From assembly GCA_048882505.1 (NCBI GenBank), contig JBHLRO010000003.1:15157-79156 (forward strand): 64,000 nt of DNA. The letters are read 5' to 3'. This stretch comes from Candidatus Thorarchaeota archaeon (GTDB lineage Archaea; Asgardarchaeota; Heimdallarchaeia; Hodarchaeales; Hodarchaeaceae). Below the pieces are notes generated by a model. That model did not search any database. It was not told the DNA's origin and worked only from the letters and a program-made list of their open reading frames with translations. Below are positions 25,828-40,547 of this stretch, piece by piece. Positions within the stretch are counted from its first letter, which is position 1. Every line of letters starts with the position of its first letter. Both the position numbers and the translations under genes were made by a program.

Positions 25828-28800
25828 ATGGGATTCCGATCGAGTTTACTTATAGCTAAAAGAGCATTAACACGAAGAAAAGCGAAGAATATCAGTGCCA
25901 TCCTTGCCATTACGTTAGGCGTAACGTTGATGGTTGGAATTCAGATAACGACAGATACTTTGGAGAACTCTTTTCTAACTGGATTACTTCTTGATGAAGG
26001 GGAAGTGGACATTCGAGTTGGAAACGGAACGGGGAATTACCTACCTATGGAATTTCAGAATAATATCTCTGAGTTAGTTCCAGACGGAAAGGTAATGCCC
26101 GAGTTGACATCGCGAGGTGCTGTAATGGCGGGTTCTCAGTTTGAAGACTCCGTTCAATTTGCAGGGATTCCCTCCGAATATCCAGAGATCTTTGGGGACT
26201 TTTATGATTGGAACACACAAGAAAAAATGAACATTAGCGATTACTTAACTGATAATACAAGTGTTTTGCTATCAAGCAACTTGGCTGAGGATTTGGATAT
26301 AGAAAAAGATAGTCAACTGCCGATAACCTTGGTTACAGAGTTTAATAACCAGACAATCATTTTACTGCCAAATGGCACGGGTCCCCCCATTCCAACCCCG
26401 ATTTTTACTGTCGAACAGGTTAATCTTTCTGTTGTTGGTCTATATGACTCTAATAGGCCAGGGATTGGAGCGCAATATACTGGTCTTTTAATGTCCCTAA
26501 AAGGCCTTCAAGATTGGCTAAGTCTTCAGGATTTTTCTCGAAATTCAAATTTGGTTAGCTCCTATCTAATATCCTTTCAATCTGATCACTTTAATACCCG
26601 TATTGACCCTGATTTCCTACAGGACCAGCTGGATTTTTTAAATGAAACTCTACCTATCGGTCTTGTTAATGGAGAGACTCAACAGTTATACGCGGCATCA
26701 TCTCCCCGTTTACTCTTTACAGAAATTATCGATCTTGTTTTCAGCTTCATGTCTACCTTTTTAAATGTTTTAGGTCTACTAATAGTACTCACTGGAGTAT
26801 TACTGATAACAAATGTTCAATTAATGAGTGTTGAAGACCGAGAGTTTCAAACTGGCGTATTACGAGCTGTGGGGGAAAAAAGGAGAGGAATTTTCGTTTC
26901 TATGCTTTCTGAAACTCTTTTTCAAGGTATTTTCGGCGGAATAATTGGATTGGTTGGAGGATTGATTTTTGGTCAAGTAGTGGCCCTTTATATTGCCAGT
27001 CTTTTTGAAACAGGACAGTTTAGCGTGCGACCAGTCATAAATCAAACCATTATCGTTTTCTCGGTCCTCATTGGGGTCGCCCTCGGTATTCTTACTGGCC
27101 TTCTCCCAGCCTTACGGGCCTCGCGTGTAAATGTCGTAGAAGCTCTTCGAGGTATTAAAATCCAATTTGAAGAGAAATCTGGTAGAAACTTGGTATTATT
27201 AAGTTTACTGCTGGTAATCGTTGGAGCACTCATTCTTTTAATAAATGGAGTTTTCGATGATAGTTTACAGTATATTTGGGAAATTAAAGGTTGGGATTCA
27301 TTGGACGAATGGAGGAATATTCTCCTTGGATCCGCAATTCTCTTTTCCGGCCTTGGCATCATTCTATCTAGCTTTATTGACCGAATCAAGGCCTTTAATT
27401 TAACAGCACTAGTGATTTGGGCAGCGCCTGTTTTTTTGTTTGTTGTGGCAATGGGAGAAGGTTGGATTGCTGAATTTTCAGGTGGTCCATTTAATATCGA
27501 TGTTTTTATCATTGCGATAATAGAGGTGGTAGTTGGATCAGTATTAATCGTCGGCCTTAATTTGTCTCCATTGATGAGATTCTTACGTAGAGTGCTTATG
27601 CGAATAAGTGGGGTCAAGGGAGTGGCGCAGGTAGCACCTGCTCTTATCTCATCACATAAGACACGTTCAACTCTAACATTCGCAATCTTTGCGGTAGTTC
27701 TCACTCTTAATGTTGTAGTTGCAGCTCTTGTAGCAACCAATCTTTCTAGCTCCATAGGGCAAGCTGAGACGGACTCTCGTGGTATAGATTTATTCGTCTC
27801 ACTTAATAAGCCTGAAGTAGTATTAAACGATACTTCATATACAAAACTACTATTTAATGTTTCCGATAGCATAACTGATGTCATAGGAATGAAAACTTTT
27901 AAAACACGAACGGATTTCACGAAATTTGTAGCCTTGAAAAAGCCTGGGTCAGTTGGGTATAATCCGTCGACCGACCATCTTCCCCTCGAATTTGTAGAAT
28001 TACGGTCAGATCAAATCAGAGGGAACGCCACTAGCGCTGAAGAGGAAAACTGGAGATACGATAGCTTCTTAGGGAGTTTTCCTGATGGTGTAGGTGAACT
28101 ATCTTCCTCCTCTGGAGGTTTCTTCGGTCCTGGCTTCGGTGGTCAGTCTGACGATGTAGAAGCATTGGAACTCTCAAAAAAAGCATTTGATGCTTTCTTT
28201 AATTCTTCTTATACCATGGCTGCATATAATGTATCGTTCTCATTGTCCTCTCTGAGCGATTTTGACATCGAAGACTTCTCATCTTTTTTTGAATCGGATT
28301 TAGAAGATGTAGAAAAATTAGAGGATGAAAATGGATCAATAATTAAAAATCCGATCATTTTTACCGATTCCCTAATCCTCCCACTAGGAATGCAGATTTT
28401 TGTGCCTATGAATATAACGTTTAATCCCTCGACTAATAGAACAGAAATTGTTTATCAACCGTTCACAATTGGTGGGAAGTTTGACCGAGAACGAACCGTG
28501 GGATTTGCTCTTTCAGGTGGTGGCTTTTCTACAAGAGCTATAGGAGATGGAGACGATCAATCAAACTTTTTAGGGAGAATCTATATTCCTGACCGGTTTT
28601 CGAACTATACGAATTTTTTTGGTGAAGCTGGAGGAGCTTCCTACTCTTCAAGAAAACCAAATCAATTTGACACCTTTCTTATTAAAACCTCCTATGCGTT
28701 TGATGATCCAAGGATAGAGGAACTTGCTATCAAAATCGAGAATTTCACAAATACTGAGGATGCCGGATATCGAAAATTGGCTAGTGATGACTTTCTAGTT

Positions 28801-29244
28801 GCAAGGACTACCTCTTTGTATTCGGAGGTAGAAGCCAGCTTGGAATCGACGGTCCAGATGACATCATTCCTAACTATCTATGTTAATTTCGGATTGATTA
28901 TCGGTGCTGTGGGAATGGCTGTGATTAGTGTTAGAAATGTTTCTGAAAGAAAACGAGAAATAGGGATGATGCGCGCAATAGGTTTTCCAAGATTTCAGGT
29001 TATGTTAGCCGCCCTCTTGGAGCTCTTGGTGTTAGGATTTATTGGTCTAATCATTGGTGTTGTGAACGGGCTTTTGATTAACGTGGGGTTTGCTAATATG
29101 ATGGAAGTGCCGGTAGTTATCCCATGGGACACCTTAGCAGCATATCTATCTTTAATTACCCTGATAGGTTTACTTGCAGGAGCTATACCCGGATTCATTG
29201 CTTCCAGAATACCTGCCGCGGAGGCATTGAGATACGTTGGATAA
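25828..29244 (+). CDS. ABC transporter permease, MacB/FtsX-type with two FtsX modules and large extracytoplasmic domains
   Basis: 1138 aa; N-terminal TM, about 270 aa extracytoplasmic region, FtsX-like 3-4 TM block, second large sequon-rich region (about 400 aa), C-terminal FtsX block ending IASRIPAAEALRYVG. Confidence 0.75.
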   Translation: MGFRSSLLIAKRALTRRKAKNISAILAITLGVTLMVGIQITTDTLENSFLTGLLLDEGEVDIRVGNGTGNYLPMEFQNNISELVPDGKVMPELTSRGAVMAGSQFEDSVQFAGIPSEYPEIFGDFYDWNTQEKMNISDYLTDNTSVLLSSNLAEDLDIEKDSQLPITLVTEFNNQTIILLPNGTGPPIPTPIFTVEQVNLSVVGLYDSNRPGIGAQYTGLLMSLKGLQDWLSLQDFSRNSNLVSSYLISFQSDHFNTRIDPDFLQDQLDFLNETLPIGLVNGETQQLYAASSPRLLFTEIIDLVFSFMSTFLNVLGLLIVLTGVLLITNVQLMSVEDREFQTGVLRAVGEKRRGIFVSMLSETLFQGIFGGIIGLVGGLIFGQVVALYIASLFETGQFSVRPVINQTIIVFSVLIGVALGILTGLLPALRASRVNVVEALRGIKIQFEEKSGRNLVLLSLLLVIVGALILLINGVFDDSLQYIWEIKGWDSLDEWRNILLGSAILFSGLGIILSSFIDRIKAFNLTALVIWAAPVFLFVVAMGEGWIAEFSGGPFNIDVFIIAIIEVVVGSVLIVGLNLSPLMRFLRRVLMRISGVKGVAQVAPALISSHKTRSTLTFAIFAVVLTLNVVVAALVATNLSSSIGQAETDSRGIDLFVSLNKPEVVLNDTSYTKLLFNVSDSITDVIGMKTFKTRTDFTKFVALKKPGSVGYNPSTDHLPLEFVELRSDQIRGNATSAEEENWRYDSFLGSFPDGVGELSSSSGGFFGPGFGGQSDDVEALELSKKAFDAFFNSSYTMAAYNVSFSLSSLSDFDIEDFSSFFESDLEDVEKLEDENGSIIKNPIIFTDSLILPLGMQIFVPMNITFNPSTNRTEIVYQPFTIGGKFDRERTVGFALSGGGFSTRAIGDGDDQSNFLGRIYIPDRFSNYTNFFGEAGGASYSSRKPNQFDTFLIKTSYAFDDPRIEELAIKIENFTNTEDAGYRKLASDDFLVARTTSLYSEVEASLESTVQMTSFLTIYVNFGLIIGAVGMAVISVRNVSERKREIGMMRAIGFPRFQVMLAALLELLVLGFIGLIIGVVNGLLINVGFANMMEVPVVIPWDTLAAYLSLITLIGLLAGAIPGFIASRIPAAEALRYVG

Positions 29245-30001
29245 TGGAGGCAAAACAATGATAGAAACAATTGTGGAAGATCCAGATTTTGTTGAGACAG
29301 AACCAATCCTCTATATCACAGATTTGCATAAACGTTATAATGAGGGAAAATCGAATGAAGTGCATGCTCTCCGTGGATTAGATCTAGAGGTAAAAAAGGG
29401 TGATATGATGGCGATAATGGGCCCTTCTGGATGCGGAAAAACGACCCTACTTAACATGATCGGGCATTTGGATGTCAGCTCAGGTGGGACCATTGTAATC
29501 AGTGGTATTGATACTGGGGAGCTTTCCGATCGTGAGATGACTGCATTTCGAAGAGATAACATCGGTTTCATATTTCAGCTCTTCAATTTATTCCCGTTCT
29601 TAACTGCGGTAGAGAATGTAGAAACTCCCTTATTATTAAAAGGCCTTAAATCAGGAGTCGCACGGGAACAGGCCAAAATGCTCCTGAGAGACTTAGGAAT
29701 GGGGGACAGACTATATCATTATCCCTTAGAGCTTTCAGGTGGACAACAACAACGAGTTGCAATCGCGCGTGCTTTGATTAATCAACCTGCAATTATTCTC
29801 GGTGACGAACCGACAGGAGATCTAGATAGTACCACAAGTGCAGTGATAATGGAACTTTTTCGCAGAATAAATATGATGAATAAACAGACATTTGTCCTGG
29901 TTACGCACAATCGGTGGATTGCTGAAAAATGTGATTACATTGTCCATATGACCGATGGGGTGATCTCCAACGTTGAATATGGACCTTTTGAGGAGGCCTA
30001 G
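29237..30001 (+). CDS. ABC transporter ATP-binding protein (MacB/LolD-type)
   Basis: Walker A GPSGCGKTT, Q-loop, signature LSGGQQQRVAIARAL, Walker B ILGDEPTGDLD, H-loop LVTHN; start overlaps permease stop by 8 nt. Confidence 0.9.
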   Translation: MDNGGKTMIETIVEDPDFVETEPILYITDLHKRYNEGKSNEVHALRGLDLEVKKGDMMAIMGPSGCGKTTLLNMIGHLDVSSGGTIVISGIDTGELSDREMTAFRRDNIGFIFQLFNLFPFLTAVENVETPLLLKGLKSGVAREQAKMLLRDLGMGDRLYHYPLELSGGQQQRVAIARALINQPAIILGDEPTGDLDSTTSAVIMELFRRINMMNKQTFVLVTHNRWIAEKCDYIVHMTDGVISNVEYGPFEEA

Positions 30002-30003
30002 CC

Positions 30004-32787
30004 ATGGTAAGAGTATACACTGCAGCCTTGATAGATAAACCTTTACGTGCCATTAATAAGAATTTACAGAAAAAGATGACTTCGGATTTGAGGAAATCTC
30101 TTAAGGTTCGGCGTGATGCAGTATCTAGTCAGGAGTTGAACACATTCCTCCTAGTTTCAGGCAAAAACGGAAAACGCGGATTCACCCCGGAAATGATAGA
30201 TAGGGTTGAAAAAGGAGCCATTCAGAAAAGACTAAAGCAATATTACAATAGAAATGAGTCACGATTTAGGAACTACATGAAAAACAATCAAGAGTTATAT
30301 GAAACCTCCCAGGTGGTAAAAGAATTCATCCGAGAGATTGATTCATCTCTTCCGAAAAAGTTCGACCAACAATTAAAGAAAATTAACACAGAATTACCGG
30401 AAATTTTCTGCCAGATTAGTATGAAGAGTTTTATTACTTTATGGGAGATTGAAGAAAGGCAGGAATATCGTTTTAACTTGTCCGGATTTGATTTTCCCAT
30501 ATTTGCCGGAACAACCAATGGAACCCCATTTAATGTAGGAAGTTTAGTAGATAAGCTTCTCATTGTAAATTTCTTTGAAACTTTCTTAAAATCAACCCTC
30601 CAGCGACTCGATGATATGAATCAGGTACTGGAACGTCTCGAATACGAACTTTCCAAGCCACACTATCAAATTAAGAACGAAAAACTACACGCCAAATTCT
30701 CTCTCTTTCTACGAATTCTGGTTGCAAAACTAAGCGCCTTACAGGAGTTAGAAAACTCGATCTTTCGGATCTTTAGTTTGTTTGATGTTCCATATATGAT
30801 CCTTACTCAATATCGTTTTAAAAGCGATTTTTTGGATTTAAATACAGAGATCGCCAGAATCTGCGAGGATATTAGTGTAGGTAAAGATAAACTCAACGAG
30901 GTAGGAAGAAAAATTGATAATTGCCAATTATCTCTTCGAGATTATCTTGATGAAAGTAGAAATGGAGTTATAAAGACTGATTCGACCCAATTATTCAAAG
31001 ATTCTCTGAAATCATTAGCAGAATTAAGTATTGATTTGTTTATAGAATCTGAAATGTTAAAACTTTGGTCGGATTATTTTGGATCAGATATTCCTTATTT
31101 TAGTTTTAATGTCCAATTAGATGAGGAAACTGAAAGCGAGGAGGATATCCACATCGATGATGATGTTATTTTGGCTGTGAGAGGGCTCTATAAGAACTAT
31201 AACCTTGGTCGTACCACCGTTTATGCAGTACGGGGAGTTAATCTCGATATTAAGGCAGGTGAATTTGTTGCAATAGTCGGCAGTTCCGGCGCAGGTAAGA
31301 CAACACTATTAAACTGTATGGCCAGTTTAGATACTCCGGATCATGGTGTCGTTTATTTTCGGGGGAGAAATCTTCACAAACTGAAAGATTCAGAGAAAGC
31401 AGACGTCCGACTTCGCGAAATGGGTTTCATTTTTCAGAGCTACGCCTTACTACCTCATTTCGACACTCGCGAAAATGTAACCCTCCCAGCAAATCTGGCA
31501 GGCGGATTAAGTAAAGGTATAAGAACCCGAATTGAGAATCTTTTGGTGGGTGTTGGAATAAGTGAACAGGCGAAACAATATCCTGCTCAGTTGAGCGGAG
31601 GTCAGATGCAACGGGTGGCAATTGCACGAGCTCTTACAAATCAACCGGCTGTCATATTTGCTGATGAACCCACAGGTGATCTGGATTCGACCACTGGTGT
31701 TCAAGTGATGGAATTGCTAAAGAAATTCCATGAGGAAACAAATACGACCATTGTAATCATAACACATGAGGAGAGTATTGCTAATTACGCTGAAAGGCGA
31801 ATTATGATGGAAGATGGAGTAATTACGCAGCGAAAAAGGCCCGTTGATCAAGCGGGACAGCCTATCCTGATGGAAAAGCCAATGATGCCGAAAGTTGAAA
31901 GGGAACTACCTCCAATATGGGAGGAAAGAGTAAACGAAATCGAAGGAAGGTTAGAGACCTTCGAGAAGAAAAACATTGAACTATTAGGCAAGGTAGTAAA
32001 AGAAGTACAAAGACAGTTGGACGAAATAAGGGGTAACATAGAAGTTCTTGGGATTGAGACCAACAAAAAATCGCTGGATCTGAGTACAAGATTTGAACAA
32101 CTAAATACTAATGCTAGCAATTGGTCATTTGCAATCAATGAACAGATGGAATCATTTCGTGCTCAATATGTTAAAGTGCTGGAAGAGCTCAGGCAATCTT
32201 CAATCAGATCGGCCGAAAAGGAAAGAATTCTTTCGCAAAAGTATACAGAACTCGTGGAACAATTAAAAGAAAAAGACCAGATAGCGGTTGAAAAAGGCAA
32301 TCTAAATCAAGTAAGGTTCAGTGCATTACAAAAGGAGATCGAAAGGAAGGAATCAGACTTAGGAATTTATAAGGATAGATTGGAGGAGCTGGAATCTGAA
32401 ATAAAGGTAAAACAGCAGCATATTGATGAATCTACTGAAATTAAAATGAAAACAGAAAACCTAGTAAATAGCTACAGAAAATTAAAGGAAGCTTATGATA
32501 ATAAGAGTCGGGAAGTGACTCATTTACAGGCTCAATTAGCATCCATGACTGAAGATACGAAGAAGATCGTTAAAAGTACCAGGGCTATAAAGGCATTCCT
32601 CGATGAGAGTGATTCAGGTCGAATCCTGTACCAACTTCTTAATTCTGAGCGTTTAAATCTAGATGAACTTGCGGTTCGGACTGGAATCGCAACATATACC
32701 GTTTACCAAATAGTTCAACACCTTCGAGATATTGGTGTAGTTGAGTTCGATAATTCCACACGCGTAGTTACATTAGTAAGCAAGTAA
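30004..32787 (+). CDS. ABC-type ATPase with about 390-aa N-terminal domain of unknown function and C-terminal coiled-coil plus wHTH-like tail
   Basis: Central Walker A GSSGAGKTT, signature LSGGQMQRVAIARAL, Walker B IFADEPTGDLD, H-loop ITHEE; C-terminal about 300 aa heptad-rich (E/K/L) ending in TGIATYTVYQIVQHLRDIGVVEF; starts 3 nt after upstream ATPase gene. Confidence 0.7.
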   Translation: MVRVYTAALIDKPLRAINKNLQKKMTSDLRKSLKVRRDAVSSQELNTFLLVSGKNGKRGFTPEMIDRVEKGAIQKRLKQYYNRNESRFRNYMKNNQELYETSQVVKEFIREIDSSLPKKFDQQLKKINTELPEIFCQISMKSFITLWEIEERQEYRFNLSGFDFPIFAGTTNGTPFNVGSLVDKLLIVNFFETFLKSTLQRLDDMNQVLERLEYELSKPHYQIKNEKLHAKFSLFLRILVAKLSALQELENSIFRIFSLFDVPYMILTQYRFKSDFLDLNTEIARICEDISVGKDKLNEVGRKIDNCQLSLRDYLDESRNGVIKTDSTQLFKDSLKSLAELSIDLFIESEMLKLWSDYFGSDIPYFSFNVQLDEETESEEDIHIDDDVILAVRGLYKNYNLGRTTVYAVRGVNLDIKAGEFVAIVGSSGAGKTTLLNCMASLDTPDHGVVYFRGRNLHKLKDSEKADVRLREMGFIFQSYALLPHFDTRENVTLPANLAGGLSKGIRTRIENLLVGVGISEQAKQYPAQLSGGQMQRVAIARALTNQPAVIFADEPTGDLDSTTGVQVMELLKKFHEETNTTIVIITHEESIANYAERRIMMEDGVITQRKRPVDQAGQPILMEKPMMPKVERELPPIWEERVNEIEGRLETFEKKNIELLGKVVKEVQRQLDEIRGNIEVLGIETNKKSLDLSTRFEQLNTNASNWSFAINEQMESFRAQYVKVLEELRQSSIRSAEKERILSQKYTELVEQLKEKDQIAVEKGNLNQVRFSALQKEIERKESDLGIYKDRLEELESEIKVKQQHIDESTEIKMKTENLVNSYRKLKEAYDNKSREVTHLQAQLASMTEDTKKIVKSTRAIKAFLDESDSGRILYQLLNSERLNLDELAVRTGIATYTVYQIVQHLRDIGVVEFDNSTRVVTLVSK

Positions 32788-33207: not shown

Positions 33208-34026
33208 ATGACATCATCAGAAAATAATCTTGGAAATTATCATTTTACAGAATTTCCCATCAATCGACAGATCCTTAGTGACCTCTATGATGAATTTCTA
33301 AAAAAACATTATTCCATAGGTTACCTTGAAGTGACTGTTTCCAAAGCTTTGGAATTGATAAACAAATTGACAAAGAAGACTGGGGAAAAAATTTCTTTCA
33401 CGGCTTGGGTTGTTAAGTGCATCAGTGATGCTATCCTTCAGTTTCCAGAGTTTAACTCTTATCGAAAGGGGAGAAACAGGCTAGTAACGTTTGAGGACAT
33501 TGATATTATCGTTATGGTGGAACGTCAGTTAGTTGAAAAATTCATTCCAGTTCCTTATTCGATTCGAAAAACTACAAAGAAAGATTTACTAGCCATTTCA
33601 AGGGAAATTAGGACAGCACAAAATATGGAAGTAACTGAGAAAAATCAGCTTCTTGATCAAGGGATCCTTACCAGATTATATCCGCTTATTCCAGGGATTA
33701 TTAAACGACGCCTGATTAGACGTATTCTTCGAAACCCTTTTTCTATAAAAAAACAAGGAGGGTTAATCGTAGTTACCTCGGTTGGTATGTTCACTAATAC
33801 TCGTGGATGGGTAGGTGGATTCGGCGGGATAACTACCCTCAATTTTGCAATTGGTGGGATCACTCAAAAACTCGTTAAATCTGGTGATTCTATCAAGGAA
33901 GAACAATGTTTACAGATGACCATATCTCTCGACCACGATATTATTGATGGGGGTCCTGCGGCTCGTTTTTCAGCATATCTAGTCGATTTACTTGAAAAGG
34001 CTAGTGGTTTGACTGGACTGATGTAA
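33208..34026 (+). CDS. stand-alone 2-oxoacid dehydrogenase E2-type acyltransferase catalytic domain protein (CAT-like fold)
   Basis: C-terminal GGLIVVTSVGMF...ISLDHDIIDGGPAARF matches the E2 catalytic core (SNLGMFG...DHRxxDG) with catalytic His/Asp present; no lipoyl or E3-binding domains. Confidence 0.7.
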   Translation: MTSSENNLGNYHFTEFPINRQILSDLYDEFLKKHYSIGYLEVTVSKALELINKLTKKTGEKISFTAWVVKCISDAILQFPEFNSYRKGRNRLVTFEDIDIIVMVERQLVEKFIPVPYSIRKTTKKDLLAISREIRTAQNMEVTEKNQLLDQGILTRLYPLIPGIIKRRLIRRILRNPFSIKKQGGLIVVTSVGMFTNTRGWVGGFGGITTLNFAIGGITQKLVKSGDSIKEEQCLQMTISLDHDIIDGGPAARFSAYLVDLLEKASGLTGLM

Positions 34027-34570: not shown

Positions 34571-35242
34571 TCAGAAGAATTCAGATAATGTTGTTTTAGG
34601 GTTCTTCTTTTTTGCGGGTTTTATTGTGGTCGGCCCATTATCCCCCTTGCTCGGCAGCGTATCAACAATCCAACTATTCATTTCTCCCTCATACGGTTTA
34701 AGGATCGCTAATAACTGCTCTTGAGTTTTCTCATAATTAAGCCAAAAATCGACTTGTTTTTTATTGAAAATGACTGGCATCCTATGAAAAACCTTTTCAA
34801 CAACGGGATGAGGATCAGTTGTTAAAACTGCACATTTATACCTCATCCTGCTCTCCTCTTCATCGAAATAAGAATTATAAATCCCAGCAATTCCGAATAA
34901 AGGCTCGTTTTTTAACGAAAAGTAGTATGGGATTCTTTCTTTACCGACGCGTTCCCATTCAAAAAAACCGTTTGCAAGAATAACACAACGTTTTTCCACA
35001 AAGGCTTTCCTGAAAAGCTTTTTTTCATGAACCGTTTCACTTCGAGCTTTATATGATTGAAAACCTTTTGTATAACCCCAATACATTCGAACTAGTTTGT
35101 AACCTTCCTCATTTACAATTGCAGTTGCTCTGTTTGTTGGTTTAAGATTGTAATAAGGAAAAACCTCAAGATTCCCTGGAGAAACGCCAAATGTAGACTC
35201 AATTTCATCTTTTGACGAAAAAAAGGCGAATCTTGAAGGCAT
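34571..35242 (-). CDS. SRAP (SOS-response associated peptidase, YedK/HMCES-like) homolog with Pro at position 2
   Basis: MPSRFA...YNLKP...WGY...KARSET...ILANGFFEWE...PYYF...HHRMPVIF parallels YedK MCGRFA...YNVAP...WGY...NARVET...FADGWFEWK...HDRRPLVL; start codon ATG confirmed, codon 2 is CCT (Pro), in-frame stop 6 codons upstream. Confidence 0.65.
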   Translation of the reverse strand: MPSRFAFFSSKDEIESTFGVSPGNLEVFPYYNLKPTNRATAIVNEEGYKLVRMYWGYTKGFQSYKARSETVHEKKLFRKAFVEKRCVILANGFFEWERVGKERIPYYFSLKNEPLFGIAGIYNSYFDEEESRMRYKCAVLTTDPHPVVEKVFHRMPVIFNKKQVDFWLNYEKTQEQLLAILKPYEGEMNSWIVDTLPSKGDNGPTTIKPAKKKNPKTTLSEFF

Positions 35243-35425
35243 AAGATTCGATTTGGTACCTGTTTTAAAAAAAATGTTTTACGAAGCTTAAAATGGGGAA
35301 CTCGTTGAGGATGCCTGAATTTTAACTGGAGAGGATAAGTCATCTGCCCAAAGAACATTGATGGAGATACAATTACTTTTCGGAAAGCGGGATCTGGAGA
35401 TATTCCGTCCCTCATAAATGTTTAC

Positions 35426-36261: not shown

Positions 36262-37128
36262 TTGATAGATATGAAGTTGAAGGGATTTGAAAAGTTACAG
36301 CAGAAATTGCCGGGATATAGCGGCAAGAGGTTTGTCATTATACCACTCATCGGGTTTGTCTCTTTTATTTCCAGCTTTTTCATTTTGCTACTGAGCTATT
36401 GGATGCCCACCCTTCTTCCCGATAATGAACTACTTGGTCTGGCTGAACCAATATTACCTATTGCTGGTCAGGTGATCATATTAACCATTGGGTTTTTCCT
36501 AATCGCGCGAGTATGGAATAGAAGACGGTTACTACTCAAAAAACATAAGGAATTAGCATATGAGCGAGGAGTCATTTCAGGATTCATTGGCGTACCTTTG
36601 GTACTTGCAACGGCATTCCACAGTTTGTTCCCGATAGCTTTTTCGTGGGAACCAATAAATCCAACTACTGCTCAAATGTTCTTTTCACCATTCAGATCTA
36701 ACTTGATTTTATCGATTATTTTATTACTTATTGGGTCCATCCTAGTTCTAATTGGATTATTGACCTTTCGGAGAGCAATTTTGACTTTTGGAATCGATTA
36801 TATGGCGGTTATATACGTTTATTACCCAGAAGAGTCAGAACTTCAGGATCATCAAATTTACTCTATCCTGAGGCATCCAACGTATTTTGCTATCATTTTG
36901 ACTGCCGTAGGTGGATGGCTGGTAAACTTCTCGGTGTATTCATTCATTGCGATGTTGCTCGTTATCCTCGGTATACTCATCCATCTTCGGTTTGTTGAAG
37001 AAAAGGAGCTTTTAGAACGGTTTGAATCATTTCGAGAATATAGACAACAGGTTCCAGCATTTATCATCAAACCTAGTCAAATTGTACCTTTTTTCAGATT
37101 TATCTTAGGCCAGGAAAACGCTCAATAG
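36262..37128 (+). CDS. ICMT/PEMT-like membrane methyltransferase (isoprenylcysteine carboxyl methyltransferase family)
   Basis: C-terminal RHPTYFA...VEEKELLERFESFREYRQQVP matches the ICMT signature (RHPxY...EE..L...FG..Y..Y); several N-terminal TM helices. Confidence 0.55.
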   Translation: MIDMKLKGFEKLQQKLPGYSGKRFVIIPLIGFVSFISSFFILLLSYWMPTLLPDNELLGLAEPILPIAGQVIILTIGFFLIARVWNRRRLLLKKHKELAYERGVISGFIGVPLVLATAFHSLFPIAFSWEPINPTTAQMFFSPFRSNLILSIILLLIGSILVLIGLLTFRRAILTFGIDYMAVIYVYYPEESELQDHQIYSILRHPTYFAIILTAVGGWLVNFSVYSFIAMLLVILGILIHLRFVEEKELLERFESFREYRQQVPAFIIKPSQIVPFFRFILGQENAQ

Positions 37129-38767: not shown

Positions 38768-39586
38768 ATGTCACCATCAAAAGACAATCTTGGAAATTAC
38801 CATCTAACCGAGTTTCCCACCAATCGCCAAATCCTTAGTGACCTTTATGATGAATTTCTAAAGAAGCATTATTCCATTGGTTACATTGAGGTGACTGTTT
38901 CCAAGGCTAACGAATTGATAAACAAGTTCCTAGAGAAGACAGGAGAAAAAATTTCTTTCACCGCTTGGATCGTTAAGTGTATCAGTGATGCCGTCGTTCA
39001 GTTCCCAGAATTTAATTCTTATCGAAAGGAGAGAAACAAGCTTGTCACGTTTGAGGATATTGATATTATTGTTATGGTGGAACAGCAGTTACCTGACAAA
39101 GTTGTTCCGATCCCTTATTCTATTCGAAAAACTACAAATAAAAATCTATTAACCATTTCTAAAGAAATTAGGACAACACAAAGTATGGAAGTAACTGAGG
39201 AACATCAGCTACTTGATCAGGGAATCCTTATCAAATTATATCCATTAATTCCAGCATTTATTCGACAACGACTGATAAGACGTAAGATTCGAGATCCTTT
39301 TACCATTAAAAAACAGGGAGGATTAATTGTGGTCACCTCCGTTGGTATGTTTATCAATACTCGGGGGTGGGTGGGAGGATTTGGCGGGATAACTACCCTA
39401 AATTTTGTAATTGGTGGAATCACGAAAAAATTCGTTAAATCTGGTGATTCGATCAAGGAAGAACAACTTCTACAGATGAGCATTTATCTTGACCATGATA
39501 TTATTGATGGGGCTCCAACGGCTCGTTTTTCGGCGTATCTAGTCGATTTACTGGAGAATGCAAATGGTTTAACTGAACTGATCTAG
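38768..39586 (+). CDS. stand-alone E2-type acyltransferase catalytic domain protein, paralog of 33208..34026
   Basis: 272 aa, collinear with 33208..34026 over its full length (GGLIVVTSVGMF...YLDHDIIDGAPTARF). Confidence 0.7.
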   Translation: MSPSKDNLGNYHLTEFPTNRQILSDLYDEFLKKHYSIGYIEVTVSKANELINKFLEKTGEKISFTAWIVKCISDAVVQFPEFNSYRKERNKLVTFEDIDIIVMVEQQLPDKVVPIPYSIRKTTNKNLLTISKEIRTTQSMEVTEEHQLLDQGILIKLYPLIPAFIRQRLIRRKIRDPFTIKKQGGLIVVTSVGMFINTRGWVGGFGGITTLNFVIGGITKKFVKSGDSIKEEQLLQMSIYLDHDIIDGAPTARFSAYLVDLLENANGLTELI

Positions 39587-39863: not shown

Positions 39864-40547
39864 TTATTTCTGTGTCTTAATGCCAAATGGTACCAATAAT
39901 GGTGTGTGTATCTTATATTCAAGGTAGTTCTCACCAAAGCGAATTTCCAGCTCTTTTTCTTCATAAACTTTTAGAAAAAATATCCAGACCGGTACCACAA
40001 GAGTAAGAACCCACAATAGAAACCCCGCAGATTGGAAAAATAACGCTAAGGAGACTAAAAATAGGAGAATGGCTAAGACCATGGGATTGCGCGTTCGAGC
40101 ATACAACCAATCGCTTACAAGATATCTACTATTAGCAATCAAAGCGAATGGAGCCCCTAATCCTCTTAGTGCCAAATAAACCACTGTAAGCAAAGTGAAA
40201 ACACCGCTTATACTAAGAAGAATAAAACTTATCTCCTTAGGAAATGGTATAATAACTCCCTTCCAACTTTCAGCAGACAAAATAGCTCGTATAATGCCTG
40301 CTCCAAGACAAATCATGATAGAAAAATGAATTGTCATATTTAACCAGAAAGTGTGTTTAGCTGTTGGATATTTATTGAGGATGAATCGCCCTACAGAAGA
40401 AATTGGAGCAACAGCAACCACACCCCCTATTATTATGAATGCGTCAGTCATAAGATCAAATTGCTGGTCGAAAAACCATCTCCAAATTATGAAGACAAGT
40501 ATCAGGCTTAGAAATCGAATTATAGACGAGATTATAGGAGATCTCAT
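39864..40547 (-). CDS. ICMT/PEMT-like membrane methyltransferase paralog
   Basis: RTRNPMVLAILLF...VYEEKELEIRFGENYLEYKIHTP matches the ICMT C-terminal signature; 5-6 TM helices. Confidence 0.55.
   Translation of the reverse strand: MRSPIISSIIRFLSLILVFIIWRWFFDQQFDLMTDAFIIIGGVVAVAPISSVGRFILNKYPTAKHTFWLNMTIHFSIMICLGAGIIRAILSAESWKGVIIPFPKEISFILLSISGVFTLLTVVYLALRGLGAPFALIANSRYLVSDWLYARTRNPMVLAILLFLVSLALFFQSAGFLLWVLTLVVPVWIFFLKVYEEKELEIRFGENYLEYKIHTPLLVPFGIKTQK

Follow-up and report, generated by a model that had tools for sequence, protein, structure and literature searches.

A clade of Asgard archaeal SRAP proteins with proline at the position of the nucleophilic cysteine: candidate abasic-site lyases

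In a 64,000-nucleotide stretch of DNA from an Asgard archaeon (contig JBHLRO010000003.1; hereafter the window), we analyzed a gene encoding a protein of the SRAP family, to which YedK and HMCES belong. The protein is SRAP-fold and carries a proline at the position of the nucleophilic cysteine. Together with its relatives it almost certainly forms a genuine, functional Cys-less SRAP clade (the Pro2 clade). As far as sampled, this clade is confined to Asgard archaea, mainly Heimdall-, Hod- and Kariarchaeota by name. Judged from the aligned sequences, its catalytic center is replaced in a coordinated and invariant manner rather than decayed. Our best reading, which we hold with slightly less than even confidence, is that these proteins are neofunctionalized SRAP paralogues acting as PCNA-tethered abasic-site (AP) lyases through a Pro2 iminium ion, possibly as 5'-deoxyribose phosphate (5'-dRP) lyases. 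The gene and its start are defined by the following features:

34571..35242, minus strand: coding sequence of the Pro2 SRAP paralogue, 223 amino acids plus a TGA stop at 34571-34573 (open reading frame list, Pfam, AlphaFold2, Foldseek, and the ratio of nonsynonymous to synonymous substitution rates, dN/dS)
35228..35242, minus strand: N-terminal signature M-P-S-R-F, with Pro2 (CCT, 35237-35239) for Cys2 and Ser3 for Gly3
35263..35274, minus strand: TATA-like element TTTTTTTTAAAA, at -21 to -32 relative to the ATG

The Pfam SRAP profile PF02586 matches residues 1-194 of the window protein at 157 bits (gathering threshold 27.1, E=6.7e-46), spanning profile positions 1-208 of 214. The match begins at profile position 1, and residue 2 aligns with Cys2 of YedK. 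Among solved structures, sequence matches were obtained with 2f20, HMCES and YedK. The AlphaFold2 model, built with 38 aligned sequences, reached a pLDDT of 91.6 and a pTM of 0.88, and Foldseek matched it to 2f20, HMCES (6oov, 5ko9) and YedK (8d2m, 6nua) with TM scores of 0.76-0.82 and E=1e-19 to 1e-13. Pfam gave no match to the window protein other than SRAP, all structural matches in Foldseek were SRAP proteins, and the NCBIfam scan produced a YedK-subfamily match only, below threshold. In public annotation the Pro2 relatives are called 'SOS response-associated peptidase / YedK', an automatic label implying a crosslinking activity that is impossible for Pro2 proteins.

An initial annotation of this DNA had described an open reading frame with a Met-Pro-Ser-Arg-Phe start at 34571-35242. 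Our analysis confirms it and adds the strand, which had not been given. That annotation had also considered that the true start might be elsewhere, or that the proline might be a sequencing error. The first codons of the gene are ATG CCT TCA AGA TTC (MPSRF). The first stop in frame is found 13 codons before the ATG, not six as had been stated, and the translated upstream region reads F, stop, AS, stop, NIFFKTGTKSNL, MPSRF. None of the 12 codons between that stop and the ATG is ATG, GTG or TTG. In archaea, the TATA element is spaced about 26 nt from the transcription start site. The position of the TATA-like element thus implies that the SRAP mRNA is leaderless or nearly so, a prediction that leaves no space for a different start. 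T/A-rich TTTAAA or TTAAAT is found at a similar distance upstream in about 10 of 11 orthologous loci (judged by eye), and the N-terminus is the same in all loci. An alternative start, or a cysteine encoded upstream, was ruled out by the position of the stop, the lack of intervening start codons and the TATA-like box at -21 to -32.

A homologue search in 5.8 billion proteins, unfiltered for the N-terminus, returned about 40 relatives at 45-96% identity, and all full-length ones start MPSR(F/L). P0203, a divergent protein from a Heimdallarchaeota genome (37% identity), also starts MPSRF. The sources name the relatives Heimdallarchaeota, Hodarchaeales, Kariarchaeaceae and Promethearchaeota, and once a Thorarchaeota metagenome-assembled genome (MAG); in the NCBI taxonomy, all of their lineages fall within the Asgard kingdom Promethearchaeati. 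In a wider search of 1.84 billion representatives, which recovered 16,107 SRAPs at E<=1e-3, the signature was common only to P0053 and P0054 among the best 150, and scores drop sharply, from 225 to 142 and 135 bits. In a neighbor-joining tree, the Pro2 clade is monophyletic in 100 of 100 bootstraps, on a long stem. The closest group to it in this tree is the cluster of P0056 (Cys2, tail TLDDFF), although the tree does not settle which is the sister group.

Eleven independent loci (the window, L001-L004, L039, L040 and L119-L122) were compared at the nucleotide level. Codon 2 is CCT, CCC, CCA or CCG, so that all four proline codons are in use; codon 3 is TCA, TCC or TCT, and codon 4 is AGA, CGA, CGT or CGG. 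Gene-wide dN/dS between the window SRAP and its four closest loci is 0.07-0.12, and the Pro2 SRAP gene is under strong purifying selection. The probability that the variant is an artefact (a sequencing or assembly error, a miscalled start, or a decaying pseudogene) is therefore close to nil: nothing speaks for it except the unusual residue itself. Against it stand 40 proteins from independent assemblies, the synonymous variation at codons 2, 3 and 4, the lack of an upstream start, the promoter-like element and a dN/dS of about 0.1. A sequencing error was thus ruled out by the 40 MPSR homologues and the four proline codons, and a pseudogene or relaxed selection by the dN/dS and the invariant site.

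Among public sequences, the SRAP gene is matched most closely by one on contig JBHLSH010000006.1 of the Heimdallarchaeota MAG TM2S.58, with 96% amino acid identity and a synonymous divergence (dS) of about 0.27; TM2S.58 is a related, not identical, genome to the source of the window. Some start calls in the public records deviate from the clade pattern. In P0054 and P0204 the start is set five codons before PSRF (MVVIKL-PSRF), whereas the NCBI record of P0203 begins at the position of the Leu codon, as M-PSRF, and a canonical Heimdallarchaeota paralogue, P0340 (NCBI, 268 aa), has a 37-residue extension before MCGRF, though Cys must be residue 2. The called starts of P0340, P0054 and P0204 are probably wrong.

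Departures from Cys2 also occur outside the clade. P0125, P0150 (from a Caldisericia MAG), P0201 and P0419 are sporadic SRAPs with an MPGR or MPER start and canonical Asn75, Glu105 and His160. Two bases have to change to turn Cys (TGY) into Pro (CCN), so that single read errors are unlikely in these proteins. The recurrence of Pro2 is suggestive, but no more, of function. P0070 (MFKRF) lacks Glu105 and His160 as well, while P0133 (MGHRF) keeps Asn75, Glu105 and His160 and shows Ala76 replaced by Cys and Pro164 by Phe; these two non-Cys variants look degenerate, or partly so.

The remodeling of the active site concerns the following segments of the window protein:

35129..35155, minus strand: YYNLKPTNR motif, with Lys34 for the Ala of canonical YN(V/I)AP(G/T/S); Pro35 (YedK Pro40) kept
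35033..35056, minus strand: SYKARSET, with Lys65 (35048-35050) at the Asn75 position; Arg67 (YedK Arg77) kept; the preceding Trp67/Trp68 loop deleted
34955..34972, minus strand: NGFFEW, with Glu95 (34958-34960), equivalent to YedK Glu105
34820-34822, minus strand: Thr141 (YedK Thr149), kept
34781..34789, minus strand: F152-H153-R154, with Phe at the His160 position, His at the Asp161 position and Arg162 kept

These positions were compared in an alignment of 40 clade members, 337 canonical proteins and YedK (sequence identical to PDB 6kcq). The clade set was chosen by an MPSR start and the canonical set by an MCGR start, so the percentages at positions 2-4 follow from the selection: Cys2 of YedK is replaced by Pro, Gly3 by Ser, and Arg4 is kept, each in 100% of the 40 clade members. 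For the clade, the MPSR start has further support from the search without an N-terminal filter, in which all full-length matches of at least 45% identity begin with it. Ala39 of YedK, which is Ala in 87% of canonical proteins, is Lys in 100% of the clade (Lys34). Asn75 (99% of canonical proteins) is likewise Lys in every clade member (Lys65), and His160, present in 100% of canonical proteins, is Phe in 100% of the clade (Phe152). Position 161, occupied by D, N or H in canonical SRAPs and by Asp in YedK, is His in 97% of the clade (His153). The loop with Trp67, Trp68 and Lys70 of YedK is found in canonical proteins, whereas its columns are 100% gap in the clade. By contrast, the catalytic Glu105 of YedK, Glu95 in the window protein, is Glu in 100% of both groups. 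The phosphate anchor Arg77/Thr149/Arg162 corresponds to Arg67/Thr141/Arg154, all 100% conserved in the clade, with Arg162 at 100% in both groups. The positions kept at 97-100% are Arg4, Asn37, Pro40, Arg77, Glu79, Glu105, Trp106, Thr149, Arg162, Met163 and Pro164.

This comparison corrects the initial annotation on two residues. The 'HHRMP' motif, in which the catalytic histidine was thought to be retained, reads VFHRMP: Phe152 takes the His160 position and His153 stands one residue later. The Glu of KARSET, listed as a retained SRAP residue, corresponds to Glu79 of YedK, and the equivalent of the catalytic Glu105 is the kept Glu95 of NGFFEW. The N75K and A39K replacements and the deletion of the Trp loop had been overlooked.

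Beyond the SRAP domain, clade members share an invariant LPS(K/R)GDNGPxTIKP segment, followed by a Lys-rich linker and a terminal xLxxF(F/L). In the window this tail is:

34574..34618, minus strand: Lys-rich linker (PAKKKNP) and KTTLSEFF (34574-34597), which resembles a PCNA-interacting protein (PIP) box, at the extreme C-terminus

The protein ends in PAKKKNPKTTLSEFF and the stop codon, and residues 210-223 have a pLDDT of 45-55 in the AlphaFold2 model. A C-terminal [LIMV]xx[FYW][FYWLIM] is present in 38 of the 40 clade members, as compared with 20 of the 337 canonical SRAPs. The canonical Gln at position 1 of the PIP box is absent from the clade, with K, T, S, N, R or E instead. The archaeal PIP box, (I/L/M)xx(F/Y/W)(F/Y/W/L) after a flexible linker, is located at the very C-terminus of proteins, and a Gln is missing as well from the PIP of Dpo4, which is proven structurally (PMC3504372); in HMCES, C-terminal PIP motifs serve the function at the replication fork (PMC9067407). 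The tail is thus a putative PCNA-binding motif of the archaeal PIP type.

Both flanking DNA-binding regions are altered relative to canonical SRAPs, the Trp loop on the 5' side being deleted and LPS(K/R)GDNGPxTIKP standing instead of VxNxxN. This could indicate a different substrate: the phospho-alpha,beta-unsaturated aldehyde at a 3' end (3'-PUA), oxidized abasic sites, a damaged base in single-stranded DNA (ssDNA) handled as by a bifunctional glycosylase, or something other than DNA. YedK itself reacts with 3'-PUA (PMC9436759). However, the central phosphate anchor and the Glu are kept, pointing to the sugar-phosphate of DNA, and neither an added domain nor an obvious base pocket was found (judged without the model coordinates). 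We regard a change of substrate as improbable.

For the Pro2 clade we rather propose a lyase mechanism, for which YedK provides experimental background. Methionine aminopeptidase (MetAP) would take off Met1 and expose Pro2, whose secondary amine should not be N-acetylatable. In archaea, MetAP cleaves off a Met that precedes Pro, and N-acetylation, which Pro blocks, occurs only on Ser and Ala (PMC2946573). Pro is therefore the residue that, without a thiol, ensures a free amine at the N-terminus. An AP site lying in ssDNA, or else at a nick or gap, would be bound through the conserved phosphate anchor, which in YedK is formed by Arg77, Thr149 and Arg162 (PMC6821365). Glu95 would then assist ring opening and help the Pro amine to attack C1', which would yield an iminium ion. 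In the first covalent step of YedK, the N-terminal alpha-amine attacks C1' to form a Schiff base. Glu105 catalyzes ring opening and Schiff-base formation, and the AP-lyase activity of the thiol-free mutants described below depends on it, with a 25-fold loss in E105Q, but little on His160 (PMC9436759). The clade keeps exactly what Schiff-base formation needs, namely the N-terminal amine, the Glu and the phosphate anchor, and it dispenses with His160.

The lack of a 1,2-aminothiol means that a thiazolidine crosslink should be chemically excluded, and the charged iminium would drive beta-elimination, possibly beta,delta-elimination. The YedK mutants C2A and C2S behave in this way: their N-terminal amine gives a Schiff base that borohydride can trap (structure 8D2M), and they carry out beta-elimination, that is, AP-lyase activity (PMC9436759). 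The N-terminal Pro is moreover the proven nucleophile of Fpg (Zharkov 1997, as cited in PMC9436759). In YedK, the side chain of Asn75 is 3.3 Å away from C1' in the AP analogue (PMC6821365), so that Lys65 is expected beside the reaction center. Near C1'/C2' and the 3'-phosphate, it could act as a base or stabilize the leaving group. In the same structure, the Asp161 side chain, whose place is taken by His153, reaches O4' of the opened AP site through a water molecule. The outcome would be an AP lyase convergent with the Pro-Glu-Lys center of Fpg/Nei. A 5'-dRP lyase is possible, given the deletion of the loop that contacts DNA on the 5' side of the lesion; in YedK, W67A and W68A abolish ssDNA binding, and Pro40 stacks on the DNA (PMC6821365). 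The C-terminal xLxxFF would hold the enzyme on PCNA at sites of replication or repair. In this scheme the Pro2 paralogue would cut or process AP sites, which the canonical Cys2 paralogue of related lineages would shield. The occurrence of canonical Cys2 paralogues with the same type of tail is consistent with such a division of labor.

The initial annotation had proposed a nucleophile-dead SRAP with a binding-only role. One half of this holds, as a thiazolidine crosslink is impossible without the Cys; 'dead' is disfavored by the invariant site, the low dN/dS and the capacity of Pro to act as an amine nucleophile. A PCNA-tethered, non-covalent binder of AP sites or ssDNA, which senses, shields or hands over lesions, or which regulates or competes with the Cys2 paralogue, is nevertheless conceivable. 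Of the four catalytic residues of canonical SRAPs, three (C2, N75, H160) are replaced, while the anchor R77/T149/R162, Arg4 and Pro40 are kept. YedK holds AP-analogue DNA tightly without reacting (dissociation constant, Kd, of 0.17 µM for tetrahydrofuran, THF; PMC6821365), and the PIP-like tail would be enough for a recruitment role. The replaced positions are, however, invariant instead of relaxed, and the Trp67/Trp68 loop, essential for ssDNA binding by YedK, is precisely what has been deleted. Glu95 is 100% kept, yet YedK E105A binds more tightly (Kd 0.12 vs 2.2 µM; PMC6821365), and a pure binder would gain from its loss. Moreover, a free N-terminal amine reacts with AP aldehydes even in YedK C2A/C2S (PMC9436759). 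On balance we find a purely non-covalent role unlikely.

If the Pro2 clade does work by covalent catalysis, the nucleophile might also be Lys65, with Pro2 only capping or shaping the N-terminus of an AP lyase. Lys together with a carboxylate is the standard lyase pair of helix-hairpin-helix enzymes, and Schiff-base lysines are well known (Lys120 of EndoIII, Lys249 of OGG1, Lys72 of Pol beta). Lys65 is 100% conserved at the very position that approaches C1' in YedK. A merely structural Pro2, on the other hand, poorly explains selection for exactly Pro together with an invariant Ser3, and we consider this version very doubtful.

A covalent adduct might, alternatively, protect the lesion instead of cleaving it. 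Pro2 would then form an iminium ion, or a ring-closed N-glycosylamine, serving as a self-reversible shield that gives transient protection, avoids the nearly irreversible thiazolidine and needs no proteolysis for its removal. On chemical grounds, a secondary amine and 2-deoxyribose could give a neutral glycosylamine when O4' re-closes the ring. Such re-closure could be favored by the absence of His160, a residue that in YedK holds the opened sugar by its O4' (PMC6821365). Reversal of canonical DNA-protein crosslinks is described as biologically important in three reports (PMC9436759, PMC10505908, PMC10842721), and the PIP-like tail suits fork-associated shielding, as in HMCES (PMC9067407). However, an AP-site iminium normally undergoes beta-elimination, in Fpg/Nei as in YedK C2A (PMC9436759). 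The gained Lys65 beside C1'/C2' also resembles a catalytic base more than a protective feature. We know of no precedent for a reversible proline-adduct shield, and rate it as quite unlikely.

Several points weigh against the Pro2-iminium lyase itself. The clade is known from sequences and a predicted structure, and Pro2, Lys65, Glu95 and His153 are presumed to meet in one pocket. His160 is universal in canonical SRAPs, so that Phe in its place could mean that catalysis is lost, and the invariance of Pro2 could be structural, the N-terminus being buried. YedK C2A is merely a slow lyase, at 0.05 per min (PMC9436759). The PIP-like motif lacks the canonical Gln, and binding to PCNA is a prediction. 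The other Pro2 SRAPs are singletons, and the relatives of P0201 all begin MCGRF, so the recurrence of Pro2 is weak evidence. The co-occurrence of Cys2 and Pro2 paralogues is seen at the level of lineages. Finally, in the window and in L001, L119-L122 and L125 no conserved gene neighborhood ties the SRAP gene to repair genes, the neighbors being different in each.

With these reservations it is tempting to propose, with somewhat less confidence than for the lyase reading, that Pro2 SRAPs constitute a new class of AP-site enzymes. They would be PCNA-tethered catalysts working through an N-terminal Pro iminium on the SRAP fold (AP/5'-dRP lyases, or even glycosylase-lyases for ssDNA at forks) and convergent with Fpg/Nei. 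Some Asgard lineages, including Hodarchaeales, might then split the handling of AP sites into a shielding (Cys2) and a cutting (Pro2) function.

The surroundings of the gene were also inspected. The 64-kb window contains no second SRAP (tblastn), no PADLOC match to a defense system, and, over positions 1-64000, no tRNA genes (ARAGORN) or Rfam families at the gathering threshold. The SRAP region is flanked by two stand-alone 272-aa paralogues, 81% identical (33208-34026 and 38768-39586, both plus strand), whose sole match is to the catalytic domain of 2-oxoacid dehydrogenase acyltransferases (PF00198). A PEMT/ICMT-like membrane methyltransferase gene lies near each copy (36262-37128 and 39864-40547), and these pairs suggest a local duplicated cassette. 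Further away (25828-32787, plus strand), a FtsX/MacB-like permease of 1138 aa is followed by an ABC ATPase of 254 aa and by a 927-aa protein that combines an ABC ATPase domain with a C-terminal match, weak and below threshold, to a TrmB-type helix-turn-helix. In other loci, a NUDIX hydrolase gene is found directly downstream of the SRAP gene in L120 (5762-6187; P0037, Pro2) and in L126 (2189-2632; P0056, Cys2); no such neighbor is present in the window or in the other loci examined. In L125, a family-B DNA polymerase gene (346-2889) lies about 1.1 kb upstream of the Pro2 SRAP P0039 (Kariarchaeaceae), on the opposite strand, an arrangement not conserved elsewhere.

The founding paper on the SRAP family (Aravind 2013) described Cys2 as 'absolutely conserved' and, among archaea, reported SRAPs to be infrequent and restricted to euryarchaea (PMC3765255), a view on which an Asgard clade bears. 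The literature defines SRAP by the invariant Cys2, a Cys-Glu-His center and a thiazolidine DNA-protein crosslink as its only known output. In the literature searched, SRAP, HMCES or YedK are not described together with Asgard or Heimdall, and on this basis Pro2 SRAPs are a previously undescribed variant within a known family. If our reading is true, a natural, conserved clade with a Pro nucleophile and a rebuilt pocket would mean that the SRAP fold supports a second chemistry, and a missing AP/dRP-processing activity would be added to Asgard DNA repair. Hodarchaeales are reportedly the closest archaeal relatives of eukaryotes, a placement attributed to Eme et al. 2023. Their presence in the clade, along with the HMCES-like PIP tail, bears on the evolution of fork-associated handling of AP sites.

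Compared with the known SRAP proteins (E. coli YedK, human HMCES and BT_1218 of B. thetaiotaomicron, which is 2f20), the Pro2 clade has the same fold and Pfam family and the N-terminal residue at the active site. Glu105, Arg4, Pro40, Arg77, Thr149, Arg162 and Trp106 are conserved in both, and the C-terminal PIP-type tail is found in HMCES as well. The clade differs in the lack of Cys2, and so of the thiazolidine DNA-protein crosslink, and in G3S, A39K, N75K, H160F with His161, the missing Trp67/68 loop and another C-terminal DNA-contact segment. The experimental model for a Cys-less SRAP is provided by the YedK C2A/C2S mutants, which are thiol-free, form a Glu105-dependent Schiff base and carry out beta-elimination (PMC9436759). 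These mutants are engineered and slow, with a primary amine in an otherwise canonical site, whereas the clade combines a secondary amine with compensatory changes to Lys, Phe and His.

The same Asgard lineages also hold canonical Cys2 paralogues (P0340 of Heimdallarchaeota, P0417 of Kariarchaeaceae, and P0055), with the same length and type of tail, (S/T)LDD(F/Y)F, and they are among the best-scoring canonical matches to the window protein. Such paralogues are named in Heimdallarchaeota and Kariarchaeaceae MAGs only, which makes the comparison one of lineages and not of single genomes. Unlike the Pro2 clade, they have retained MCGRF and the Trp loop together with Asn75 and His160, and in the neighbor-joining tree they are not its direct sister.

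Outside the SRAP family, the closest parallel is provided by the helix-two-turn-helix (H2TH) enzymes Fpg/MutM and Nei/NEIL. Their nucleophile is the N-terminal Pro exposed after Met removal, which forms an iminium with C1'; Glu and Lys assist the Pro, and beta,delta-elimination results. The Pro2 clade offers Pro2, Glu95 and Lys65 for the same purpose. The folds are unrelated, no H2TH or zinc-finger Pfam match was found, and residue 3 of the clade is Ser and not Glu3. The likeness thus concerns a proposed working principle, not membership: by this proposal, an N-terminal proline with Glu and Lys would serve AP-site chemistry on the SRAP fold as it does in Fpg/Nei.

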